A stretch of DNA of 64,000 bases, taken from an uncultured delta proteobacterium. GTDB lineage: Bacteria > Myxococcota_A > Polyangia > Polyangiales > Polyangiaceae. The notes below the pieces were generated by a model that was given only the letters and a program-made list of their open reading frames with translations, searched no databases and had not been told where the DNA came from. The first letter of the stretch is position 1. The number at the start of each line of letters is the position of its first letter. The stretch is taken from the NCBI GenBank assembly GCA_963839305.1, contig CAWIUL010000011.1, forward strand, positions 2,633,561 to 2,697,560, read 5' to 3'. Below, piece after piece: positions 26,463 through 57,769 of this stretch. A program made the translations under genes and the position numbers.

Positions 26463-28857
26463 ATGAGGCTCGACGAGGGGTGGGAGATGGCGCTCGGAGC
26501 GCCCGTGGCTTGGAGACCGATCCCACGCGAGCGATTCGGCACCGTCGCGCGCGTCCTCGGAACGACCCTCGACGGCGACGTGACCGATTTCGACGCGACC
26601 GAGGTTTGGTATCGCAAGCGGCTCGCGCCCGGCGAGACGGGCGATCTCCTGAGGCTCGGCGGTCTCGCGACGCTCTGCGACGTGCGCGTCGACGGCGAAG
26701 AGGTGCTCCGCACGGACAACATGTTCGTGGAGCACGAGCTCACCGTCGCGCGACCCGCGCGAGATCGAGCTTCACTTTGCGCCGCTCGCGAAGGCGCTCG
26801 CCGAGCGTCGTCCGCGCCCGCGGTGGAGGGCGACGATCGTGGCGCAGCAGCAGCTCCGGTGGTTTCGCACGAGCCTGCTCGGGCGGATCCCGGCGTGGAC
26901 TCCGCCGATCGCGCCGGTGGGACCGTGGCGGCCCATCACGCTGGAAAGGGCGTCGCCCATCGCCGCGCACGACCTCAAGACGCGACTCGAAGGGCGCGAC
27001 GGCGTGGTCGAGGCCACGATCGCGCTGCGAGGCGACGTGAAGACCGTCGAGCTCGCCGTGGGCGAGCATCGCGCGACCCTCGAGGTCGACGGCGTCGCGC
27101 GCGGCACGCTGCGCGTCCCGAACGCGCCGCTCTGGTGGCCGCACACGCACGGTGCGCAGCCCCTCCTTCCGGTGCGCGCGCGGGTCGACGGAGCCGACTT
27201 CGAGCTCGGCGCGACCGGGTTTCGCAAGCTCGACGTCGATCAGCAGGGCGGCGCGTTCACGCTGCACGTCAACGGCGTTCGCGTCTTCGCGCGCGGCGCG
27301 TGCTGGACGCCGCTCGACCCGATCGGCCTCGGCGCCACGAAGGCCGAGCTCCGCGCTGCGCTGACGCAGGTGAAGCGCGCGGGGATGAACATGGTCCGCC
27401 TCTCGGGGACGATGGTCTACGAGTCGCGAGACTTCCACGAGCTGTGCGACGAGCTCGGGATCCTCGTCTGGCAGGACTTCATGTTCGCGAACATGGACTA
27501 TCCGATCGCGGACGAGCGCTTCGCCGCGTCCGTGCGCCGCGAAGCGACGCAGGCGATGTCGCGTCTTCAGCTCTCACCGAGCCTCGTCGTGTGCTGCGGC
27601 GGAAGCGAGGTCGAGCAGCAAGCGGCGATGATGGGGCTGCCCGAGAAGGACTGGTCGAGCCCGCTCTTCGCGGAGGTCTTGCCGGGGATCGTGCGCGAGG
27701 CGCGCCCCGACGTCGCGTACGTGCGCTCGACCCCCGCCTCGCATTTGGGGGGCGGCGTCCTGCCTTTTCACGTCGATCGCGGCGTGTCGCATTATTACGG
27801 CGTCGGCGCGTACCTTCGCGATTTCGACGACGCGCGGCGCGCGCGCGTGCGCTTCACGTCCGAGTGCCTCGCGTTCGCGAACGTGCCGCGCGACGAGACT
27901 ATCGAGGCGCTCATGCGCGACGGTGAGTCGCCTCCGAACCACCCGCGCTGGAAGAGCCGCGTGCCGCGCGACCGCGGCACGCCGTGGGACTTCGACGACG
28001 TGCGCGATCACTACGTGAAGGAGATCTTCGGCGTCGATCCACGCGCGCTCCTCTTCGGCGACGGCGCGCGGTACCTCGAGCTCGGGCGCGTCGCGACGGG
28101 CGAGGCGATGGCCGCGGCCATGAGCGAATGGCGTCGCGCGGGGTCCGAGTGCGCGGGCGCGCTCGTGTGGTTCCTGCGCGATCTGTGGGACGGCGCGGGT
28201 TGGGGCGTCATCGACGCGCGCGGCGCGCCCAAGGCGGCGTACCACCACTTGAAGCGCGTCCTCGCGCCCGTCGCGCTGCTCGCGATCGACGAAGGGCTCA
28301 ACGGGCTCGCGCTCCACGCGGTGAACGACGCGCCGAGCGCGATCGACGCGGAGCTCCGCGTCGCGCTTCATCGTGGCGAGGGGATCGTCGCCGAGGGCAC
28401 GCGCGCCGTCGCGCTCGGAGCGCACGACGCCATCGCCGTCTCCGCGGACGAGGTCATCGGCCGCTTCACGGACGTCACCTACGCGTATCGCTTCGGGCCG
28501 CGCGGTCACGACGCCACGCTCGCGACGCTTCGCGATCGCGCGAGCGGCGCGCTCCTCGGGCGCGCGTTTCATTTCCCGCGCGGCGCTCGCGCAGAGCGCG
28601 CGAGCGATCTCGGCCTCGAGGCACGCGCCGAACGCGTCGACGAGGGCTCGTGGAGGCTCACGGTGCGCACGAAGAAGGTCGCGTACGCGGTCGCCATCGA
28701 CGCGCGCGGATTCGTCGCCGACGACGACTTCTTCCACGTGGCGCCCGGCGACACTGGCGCGTTCTCGACCGTGCTCACGGGGCGAGGCGACACGATCTCG
28801 GGGACGGTTAAGGCGCTCAACGCCACGACGCCGACGAAGATCGTTTGCGCGCGTTGA
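26463..28857 (+). pseudogene. Glycoside hydrolase family 2 (beta-mannosidase-like), reading frame broken near 26750. Pseudogene or sequencing indel.
   Basis: The N-terminal sugar-binding domain is in frame 26463 (…TDNMFVEHELTVA). The rest is in the frame of ORF 26839..28857 (…REIELHFAPL…, GH2 TIM-barrel). The switch falls within about 26745-26760. Confidence 0.65.
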
Positions 28858-28888
28858 CAGCTCGAGTTTCCGTAGTCACGCCATATGA

Positions 28889-29698
28889 ATGACGGCAGTA
28901 CAAGACGCGCTGAATCGTTCGACGTGGTCGCAGCGCTCGTCGCGACGCTGGCTCGACTCGGTGCGCGACTTCACCGACCCTGGCGAGGAGGCGGCGCTCG
29001 CGGTCGTGCGCGAGCGCGCGCGCGGAAAGCCGATCCTCGACCTCGGCGTCGGCACGGGCCGAACGATACCGATGCTCGAGCCGCTCACGCACGATTACCG
29101 CGCGATCGACTATCTGGAGGGGATGGTCGACGCGTGCCGAGCGCGTCACCCGCGCGTCCGCGTCGAGCTCGGTGACGCTCGGGCGCTCGACGGCGTGCCT
29201 GACGCCCACTTCGGCCTCGTGAATTTCAGCTTCAACGGGATCGACGCGGTCGATCACGACGATCGCACGCGCGTGCTCGGCGAAATGCGGCGCGTCGTTC
29301 GCCGCGACGGATACGTCCTGTTCTCGACGTTGAACCTGGACGGCCCCGCGTTCCGCGAGCGGCCTTGGACGCCGCGCGCTGCGACCCAGTGCAGCCTGCC
29401 CCGCGCGGCCGCGCGCACCGCCATCGCGCTCGCGAGCGTGCCCTTCGACGTCGCGCGGTGGATGCGCATTCGTCCTGGCGCGCATCGCGGCGACGGTTGG
29501 GCGATCGCGCCGCTCAGCGCGCACCACTACGGCGTGCTCGCGCACTTCACGACACTGGAGCGCGCGCTCGAGGAGCTCGCGAGCGCGCGACTCGATCGGG
29601 ACGTCGTCGTCCTCGAGAACACGCGAGGGGCTCACGTGAAGCCTGGCGACGACACGAGCGACGCGGACTGGTTCCACTTCGTCGCGCGCCCGGCCTAG
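28889..29698 (+). CDS. Class I SAM-dependent methyltransferase.
   Basis: Motif I ILDLGVGTGR, plus post-I and motif II regions. Confidence 0.8.
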   Translation: MTAVQDALNRSTWSQRSSRRWLDSVRDFTDPGEEAALAVVRERARGKPILDLGVGTGRTIPMLEPLTHDYRAIDYLEGMVDACRARHPRVRVELGDARALDGVPDAHFGLVNFSFNGIDAVDHDDRTRVLGEMRRVVRRDGYVLFSTLNLDGPAFRERPWTPRAATQCSLPRAAARTAIALASVPFDVARWMRIRPGAHRGDGWAIAPLSAHHYGVLAHFTTLERALEELASARLDRDVVVLENTRGAHVKPGDDTSDADWFHFVARPA

Positions 29699-29701
29699 GT
29701 A

Positions 29702-56409: not shown

Positions 56410-56723
56410 GCGACCAAAAGCGCGCGGAAGAGCGGCTCACCATCAACAAAGAGTTCGAGTCGTTCGACGCGTTCATCCAGGAATACGTCACGAACATCTC
56501 GAAGACCGGCGTCTTCGTGCGAACGCAAACGCCGCTGCCGATCGGCACGAAGGTGAACCTGTGCTTCTCGGTCATCACCGACACCGTCGAGACGATCGAG
56601 GGCGTGGGCGAGGTCGTCCGCGTCGAGACGAACGCAAACGGGCCCATGGGCATGGGCGTCGTCTTCCGCGAGCTCTCGAGCTTCTCGCGCGATCTCCTCG
56701 ACAAGCTCCTCACGCGCCGCTGA
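56406..56723 (+). CDS. PilZ domain protein (105 aa).
   Basis: PilZ-like beta-barrel motifs (TGVFVRTQTPLPIGTKV). ATGA overlap with the RNase E/G stop. Confidence 0.7.
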   Translation: MSDQKRAEERLTINKEFESFDAFIQEYVTNISKTGVFVRTQTPLPIGTKVNLCFSVITDTVETIEGVGEVVRVETNANGPMGMGVVFRELSSFSRDLLDKLLTRR

Positions 56724-56730
56724 AGCGGCG

Positions 56731-57769
56731 TTACTGGATGCGCTCGGCGAGGTACTTCATCGCCTTCGGGTAGCGGTACTCGATGGCGGCGTGGGTCGCG
56801 TCGAAGAGCTCGAAGAAGTAGTGCTTGTCGCGCTGCATGCCGAGCTTATCGAGCTCGCGGCGGAACGCTTCGGCGCCGATGTCGAGGAAGTACTCGTCGC
56901 GTTTTCCCGCGTCGATGTAGATTGCACGCATCGATTGGAGCGCCTTGGCGTAATCGGGCTTGCGCGCCATGTAGACGGGATCGAGCGCTTGCCAGCGGGC
57001 CCACACCTCGGGGATGCGCTCGCCGGTGTCGGTGTCGAACGGCATGCGGACGGTGCCGTCGGGGTCCGCGGAGTAGCAGGCGGCCATGCAGTAGTCGTTG
57101 AGGAGCGTGTGGTCGCTCGATTTGCTCAGCGCGGGGCGCGAGCGGAAGTCGGCCCAGAATTTTTCGAAGCTGCCGCCGTAGTTGTCGCGGAGAGCGCGGA
57201 CCGTGTCGCCGAACGAGCGCGCGTAGCAGAGGTCGAACATCGCGTCGCCCGCGTGCGTCGCGAGCGCGCCGAAGACGTCGGGGCGCATCATCGGGACGAC
57301 CATCGCGCCGTAACCGCCGCTCGATTTTCCGGTGAGCGCGCGGTGCGCGCTTGCGGCCTTCGTGCGGTATTTCGCGTCGACGAATGGCACGACATCGTCG
57401 CACAAGTACGTCATGTATTTCCCCGTGCCGGGGGAGTCGACGTATTGGCTTCCGCCGAGCGACGTCCACGCGTCGACCATCACGACGAGGCACGGGGCGC
57501 GCCGCGTCGCTCGAGAACATCTCGTCGACGAGCTCGATCACGTTGGGCCGAAACGCGGCGCGGTTGCGCCACATGTCGACCTGGCCCGTGAGGCCTTGAA
57601 TCAAATAGATGGTCGAGAACCGCTGCGCGGCGTTCTTTTCGTACGCCGGTGGGCGATACACCCAGAGCGGTCGCACGTGCGGATCGCCCAGCCGATTGCC
57701 CTGGAGCGCGCGGCTGTCGATCTCGAGCTCATCGAGCTTGCCGCGCAGCGGAGTCGACCACGGCTTCAC
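56731..57769 (-). pseudogene. Esterase D / S-formylglutathione-hydrolase-like esterase, apparent frameshift near 57485.
   Basis: N-terminal third in the frame of ORF 56846..57769 (…VDEMFSSDAA). The remainder is in the frame of ORF 56731..57483 (VDAWTSLGGSQYVDSP, GKSSGGYGA nucleophile elbow). Confidence 0.65.

Follow-up and report, generated by a model that had tools for sequence, protein, structure and literature searches.

Coding lesions in a 64-kb myxobacterial window: probable consensus errors in four genes and a probably decayed FkbH/LbH-ACP module

The window analysed here (the whole 64-kb stretch of DNA, 64-73% G+C, placed in the myxobacterial family Polyangiaceae by protein matches and synteny) contained eight coding lesions in six of its approximately 55 genes. 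Four genes, encoding a GH2-type glycosidase, an EntS-like and an EmrB-like transporter of the major facilitator superfamily (MFS) and an esterase, shared five +1 insertions. One +2 repeat expansion, one deletion of about 640 nt and one nonsense codon lay in a module of two genes, one encoding an LbH-FkbH fusion protein and the other a hexapeptide and acyl carrier protein (LbH-ACP), so that all six of the small indels were insertions. We lean towards a mixed origin, in which the insertions are consensus errors and the FkbH/ACP module has genuinely decayed. Taken separately, the five single-base insertions are probably residual consensus errors of a long-read assembly, and comparison with orthologous sequences indicates that true decay of the FkbH/LbH-ACP module is likewise probable. 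An initial annotation of this DNA had proposed that at least six otherwise intact genes need 1-nt frame changes; six genes were indeed broken, but the FkbH gene was not otherwise intact, having lost about 213 aa to a deletion.

As the third codon position in the window was 85-97% G+C, the reading frame could be read directly from composition. A seven-state frame model based on G+C at the third codon position (GC3), with stop codons penalised, was run on the entire window and resolved approximately 55 genes. Frame switches without a stop or start were found only at ~26748, ~31155, ~31835, ~44762, 46037-46103 and ~57490, with an additional in-frame stop at 30786-30788. All same-strand junctions in 1-26000 and 58000-64000 were ordinary stop/start junctions, mostly the 4-nt overlap of coupled genes, and the model found no abnormal gene junctions in the window besides the eight lesions. 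Three further alarms were dismissed as noise: 30174 is an intergenic stretch adjoining an intact orthologous acetyltransferase, 16541-16582 is an intergenic gap, and 54984-55154 is an Arg/Gly-rich, low-complexity part of an RNase E/G gene in which the frame is open. Frame model and homology together recovered all eight lesions within 15 nt of where they had initially been annotated.

A genome scan gave two syntenic relatives with ~70% protein identity, the synteny covering ~23 to 49 kb of the window. Locus L002 is a 2.7-Mb contig of the metagenome-assembled genome (MAG) MFD05705.bin.2.131, to which L005 also belongs, and L001 and L003 belong to a MAG of the Polyangiaceae with k141 contig names, which are suggestive of short-read assembly. 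Alignments with the EmrB-like, EntS-like and FkbH orthologues of the syntenic L001 and L002 broke at the lesion points that the frame model had given. The position and nature of each lesion were observed directly, as was the intactness of the orthologues, and the affected genes and features were as follows.

26463..28857, plus strand: GH2-type (beta-mannosidase-like) gene; +1 insertion at 26747/26748, GTC[G]CGCGAC.
30327..30992, minus strand: LbH-ACP gene (hexapeptide and phosphopantetheine-binding domains); TAG at 30788..30786.
30989..32524, minus strand: LbH-FkbH fusion gene, probable pseudogene, delimited by Hexapep and FkbH TIGR01686 matches and by tblastn with the L002, L003 and L005 orthologues.
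31137..31146, minus strand: (TC)5 dinucleotide run, which most likely arose from (TC)4 by a +2 expansion.
31833..31841, minus strand: deletion junction, ~640 nt, not a multiple of 3; ~213 residues gone.
44070..45258, minus strand: EntS-like MFS_3 transporter gene; +1 insertion at ~44763, CTC[G]TTC.
45255..46864, minus strand: EmrB-like MFS gene of the type with 14 transmembrane segments; two +1 insertions.
56731..57769, minus strand: esterase gene (PF00756, esterase D/FrmB-like); +1 insertion at 57493-57497, CGCCC[C/G]TGC.

Dropping one base at each +1 site (GH2, 26748; EntS-like, 44763; EmrB-like, 46102-46104 and 46032-46038; esterase, 57493-57497) yielded full-length proteins running from native start to native stop. 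Identity of the repaired proteins to intact homologues was 72-94% for GH2 and the esterase and 67-88% for the two MFS transporters. The 1-nt frame changes initially annotated in these four genes, two of them in the EmrB-like gene, were thus borne out, each as a +1 insertion. GC3 stayed at 0.85-0.97 past each shift, and the shifted frames were open to the native stop.

In the GH2 gene, the frame opening at 26463 gave way to the frame closing at 28857, and the match to the Glyco_hydro_2_N2 profile (positions 44-102) ended where the first frame ended. The repaired GH2 (797 aa) showed 72-76% identity over 100% of its length to proteins of 780-787 aa. A 791-aa protein from a JGI metagenome (P0241) was 94% identical, intact and in a single frame, and was encoded within the same gene order, DUF1839-GH2-methyltransferase. 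The truncated 672-aa open reading frame (ORF) at 26839..28857 is recorded publicly as P0001 (NCBI, ENA) on a 3,654,228-nt contig, from which four further intact window proteins are also recorded; the GH2 frameshift is therefore present in the deposited, highly contiguous assembly. Beyond the shift, GH2 retained 93.7% identity to its close JGI relative, compared with 89.6-97.6% for three intact neighbours, and no relaxed constraint 3' of a lesion was seen, either as loss of codon bias (GC3, all shifts) or as excess divergence (GH2). The GH2 gene (26463-28857) and the EntS-like region (43789-45258) were both missing from the otherwise syntenic L002 locus, and on this comparison the two genes appear to be accessory insertions or deletions between lineages.

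The EntS-like transporter was divided in the same manner, with Pfam MFS_3 positions 7-164 in the frame 44764-45258 and positions 166-393 in another frame of the minus strand, 44073-44813. Residues 25-192 and 188-403 of the L001 orthologue were split over two window frames, with the break at 44752-44765. The adjacent EmrB-like gene placed MFS_1 (Pfam) positions 2-188 and 214-346 in two different frames, as it did residues 23-263 (87.6% identity) and 293-549 (72.6%) of the L002 orthologue. The 29 L002 residues between these aligned blocks were located in the third window frame as 'ALAAFVIRERTATAPVVNLSLF', and from this third-frame stretch it follows that the gene carries two +1 insertions, at 46102-46104 (ATT[T]GCG) and 46032-46038 (CTCTT[T]CAG[C]GAC), with the 22 intervening codons reading correctly in the third frame. 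Residues 1-93 and 92-342 of a homologous esterase (P0122) also fell in two window frames, and the repaired esterase (345 aa) had 88-89% identity, full length, to proteins of 342-346 aa.

The three remaining lesions, of three different types, fell within 1.05 kb of one operon. In the LbH-FkbH gene, the N-terminal hexapeptide (LbH) domain was intact and the FkbH/HAD domain was truncated, only positions 68-305 of the 323 in the FkbH profile TIGR01686 (NCBIfam) being found. Alignments of the FkbH orthologues of L002, L003 and L005 all halted at 31836 and restarted at 31841, skipping 213 residues, and nothing in any window frame corresponded to residues 866-1078 of the L002 protein. What had been annotated as a 1-nt shift at 31835 is instead the junction of a deletion of about 640 nt. 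Among the skipped residues are HAD motifs I (DLDDTMWGG) and II, and with them the catalytic DxDxT. Of 40 homologous metagenomic loci, 39 had a DxDxT(L/M)W motif in frame with the retained part and 66-68 aa upstream of it, and no such motif was present in any frame of the window. The one other locus without an in-frame DxDxT (L061) reads 'SLFLIWTTPCG' ~200 nt upstream of its position 6001, which suggests that this contig may also be frameshifted at the FkbH motif. The hexamer ACCCGG occurred at both deletion breakpoints in L002, and the window junction reads TGGGCGCCCGGAG, a pattern best read as the footprint of a microhomology-mediated deletion and not as a base-calling error.

Downstream of the deletion, the last ~60 codons of FkbH (60 aa) matched L002 in the third frame and ended at the orthologous stop, 30989. 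The spacing between the motifs that flank this second change was 17 residues in the three closest tabulated orthologues (L002, L036 and L037), and the window gives 17 residues only if 2 nt are removed. The change near 31140, initially annotated as a 1-nt shift, is therefore most likely the +2 expansion of (TC)4 to (TC)5 at 31137-31146. The internal stop reported at 30786 was present as a TAG; it sits in the separate downstream LbH-ACP gene (30992->30327) and not in FkbH. The start of LbH-ACP overlaps the FkbH stop, so that the two genes are translationally coupled. Matches to the PP-binding and Hexapep profiles flank the TAG in the same frame, and the L002 orthologue aligned through the TAG position, where it has Ser. 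As the operon is 2.6 kb long (~4% of the window), coincidence of the slip and the TAG with the deletion is unlikely, and real decay is the better reading of all three. A microhomology-flanked deletion of ~640 nt would first have taken the N-terminal, catalytic half of the HAD domain of FkbH, after which the (TC) slip in the same gene and the TAG in the coupled LbH-ACP gene may have accrued as neutral secondary hits.

The insertions, on the other hand, would be left-over consensus errors of a long-read, probably metagenome-derived, assembly. At 3.65 Mb, the source contig was probably assembled from long reads, and one of the relatives served as a control. The long-read catalogue of Microflora Danica (MFD-LR) was built by Flye from Nanopore reads, with one round of Medaka and no short-read polishing (PMC12313526), and we took MFD05705.bin.2.131 to be Nanopore-only because its name fits this catalogue. 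Across the 42.9 kb of its loci L002 and L005, the frame was disrupted in four places, each within a gene whose counterpart in the window or in the k141-named MAG is intact.

L002, 8575-8638: disruption of an alpha/beta-hydrolase gene (fused).
L005, ~11150-11180: disruption of a flippase gene, +1, ATT[C]TCG.
L005, ~12575-12590: disruption of a Wzy gene, +1, CTC[G]AAATCG.
L005, ~20340: disruption of an alpha/beta-hydrolase gene, with Hydrolase_4 positions 6-116 and 183-232 in two frames.

The two that could be resolved were both +1 changes outside homopolymers and lay within 1.4 kb of each other in the Wzy/flippase region. The disruption rate of this MAG, about 1 per 11 kb, equalled that of the window, and the 34.6 kb of L001 and L003 in the k141-named MAG contained no frame disruption. 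According to the literature, Nanopore-only bins below ~40x coverage need polishing. Long-read indel error, which the initial annotation had invoked for every lesion, was thus favoured for the five 1-nt insertions, and the three FkbH/ACP lesions were not of the base-calling type.

Which of the lesions are artefact and which are biology is something that we infer, and several results weigh against treating the insertions as errors. None of the 56 homopolymers of at least five bases in the window (10 of them of at least six) carried a lesion, and the insertions stood in runs of at most four or in no run. All eight lesions fell in 31 kb of the window, with none in the remaining 33 kb (P=0.003, simulation), and three of the five insertions lay within 1.35 kb in the two adjacent transporter genes. 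The lesions were accordingly neither at the sites nor of the uniform spread that "typical" long-read errors, as they had first been called, would show. The control is small, at four versus no disruptions in ~43 kb versus ~35 kb, and the long-read origin of the source contig was deduced solely from its 3.65-Mb contiguity. An independent assembly of this strain was looked for and not found, the best match being ~70% in the genome scan and 75% in a metagenome scan with the C-terminal part of FkbH. Two JGI contigs (sample 3300075153) had 90-98% protein identity to the window, and they do not span the MFS, FkbH or esterase lesions.

Gaps between successive lesions were also short, four of seven being under 1.5 kb (P=0.012, simulation). 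Such clustering is not predicted by uniform random error and requires low local coverage, strain heterogeneity or real multi-hit decay; if the insertions are errors, it means that coverage was locally low, or strains were heterogeneous, at accessory loci. A motif common to the insertion sites, as would be left by methylation-linked systematic error, was looked for and none was found.

The best-surviving alternative, possible though on balance unlikely, is that all eight lesions are real and that the window holds clustered accessory genes that lost their function recently (for a glycosidase, an exopolysaccharide (EPS) acyl-modification module, two efflux/secretion MFS pumps and an esterase) with extra hits in genes that were already dead. 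Neutral secondary hits would predict the observed clustering, with several hits per gene or operon, yet the EmrB-like gene, hit twice ~70 nt apart, is still 88% identical to its orthologue. The absence of lesions from long homopolymers also favours this alternative. Five insertions with not one deletion, by contrast, oppose the usual deletion bias. The deletion, the nonsense codon and the repeat slip do point to real decay within the window, and the broken genes are all accessory, with RNase E/G, tRNA, signal recognition particle (SRP) RNA and glycosyltransferase genes intact; six of ~55 genes nevertheless far exceeds the usual pseudogene fraction in free-living bacteria. Neither conservation nor codon bias was lost 3' of any shift, so that any decay must have been very recent, and lesions of the same type and rate occurred in the Nanopore-only MAG with none in the MAG whose k141 names suggest short reads. 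An extension of the same idea, which we regard as improbable, is that the lesions of the Nanopore MAG are real as well, in which case populations of Polyangiaceae would bear an unusually heavy burden of very young pseudogenes in envelope, EPS and efflux genes, made by frameshifts that are biased towards insertion. An unusual process of mutation would then be indicated, or else a relaxation of selection on accessory surface functions.

Slightly less probable again is that everything is artefact. Where coverage was low or strains were mixed, a long-read metagenome assembly would then have collapsed or followed a minority-strain haplotype at the deletion, and the stop would be a consensus substitution. 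This would suit clustering in strain-variable accessory loci, among them the GH2 and EntS-like genes missing from L002, and it agrees with the fall in consensus quality of long-read MAGs at low coverage and with the two frameshifts within 1.4 kb in the Wzy/flippase region of the control MAG. However, polishing does not make a 640-nt deletion with 5-6 nt of microhomology, and a deletion borne by a strain would be real biology. It is also unlikely that a random substitution would create a stop in precisely the one operon with the deletion and the slip. Programmed recoding (translational frameshifting or transcriptional slippage yielding full-length proteins), with which the completeness of each repaired frame would agree, is effectively refuted by the single-frame orthologues (the 94%-identical relative included), none of the sites having a slippery heptamer or long homopolymer and each of five unrelated genes requiring a different signal.

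With a mixed origin as the preferred reading, the four conserved genes bearing +1 insertions would be mis-called as truncated ORFs in the deposited assembly (for example, the 672-aa P0001), and any pseudogene, pangenome or functional analysis of this genome should take them for probable sequencing artefacts and not for biology. Errors in GC-rich long-read MAGs need not be homopolymeric, and homopolymer-aware filters would miss errors such as these. The FkbH/LbH-ACP module, in turn, is probably dead in this lineage, which would then differ slightly but genuinely from its relatives in how the polysaccharide is decorated. Judging from domain content alone, the polymer would likely lose an acyl or glyceryl-type decoration.

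The module sits inside a large EPS locus of the Wzx/Wzy type at 15031-43792, which encodes a Bac_transf priming transferase, a response regulator, a WecG-type glycosyltransferase, GT2 enzymes, a Wzy-like polymerase, a Wza/Poly_export protein and a flippase, along with GH44, acyl-CoA-dehydrogenase-like, DUF1839, methyltransferase, GNAT and alpha/beta-hydrolase genes. Each of the two MAGs has two paralogous loci that are syntenic with this locus (L001/L003 and L002/L005). A single ORF within it (32557-34356) encodes two tandem alpha/beta-hydrolase domains and is followed by a coupled GNAT gene (34353-34757); the tandem fusion was also present in L001 and was broken by a frameshift in L002. The divergent intergenic regions flanking the polysaccharide locus, 22677-23400 and 14403-15030, are unusually long (600-700 nt) and had no Rfam match and no convincing ORF.

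Elsewhere in the window, a gene for an Ada (Zn-binding and AraC HTH)/AlkA glycosylase fusion at 11062-13019 is translationally coupled to an O6-methylguanine-DNA methyltransferase gene, forming an adaptive-response pair. At 46877-48379 lies a metallophosphoesterase/5'-nucleotidase-family gene whose product ends in a C-terminal EF-hand pair, an unusual fusion with 96% identity to its JGI relative and 69% to the L002 orthologue. The RNase E/G homologue (54205-56409) has an N-terminal extension of ~330 residues in which a long acidic part precedes an Arg/Gly-rich (RGG/RGR) block, and its ORF is open throughout. Both tRNA-Ser(GCT) (49937-50025) and the small bacterial SRP RNA (53968-54060) were full length against their models, with no visible lesions in either.

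The finding is ordinary, combining an assembly-quality issue with one ordinary pseudogene. Like the indels described in long-read-only assemblies (Sereika et al. 2022, PMC9262707; PMC12313526), the insertions are isolated single-base changes that split conserved genes at a rate of about 1 per 10 kb in a multi-megabase source contig, with the same lesion type in a Nanopore-only MAG of the family. They differ in that published accounts stress homopolymers, whereas the lesions in the window lack runs of five or more bases, are all insertions and are clustered. In its deletion of catalytic residues, slip frameshift and nonsense codon, the FkbH/LbH-ACP operon resembles ordinary bacterial pseudogenes. 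Unlike these, the window keeps its codon bias and conservation, and the other four genes carry only single-base insertions.

In polyketide pathways, FkbH-family enzymes load a glyceryl unit onto an ACP. The gene in the window shares with these HAD phosphatase/ACP-loading enzymes (TIGR01686) a C-terminal FkbH domain followed by an ACP-domain gene, with hexapeptide acyltransferases adjoining. It departs from them in being fused to an N-terminal LbH domain, in lying within a Wzx/Wzy-type polysaccharide locus instead of a polyketide synthase cluster, and in lacking the DxDxT nucleophile motif.

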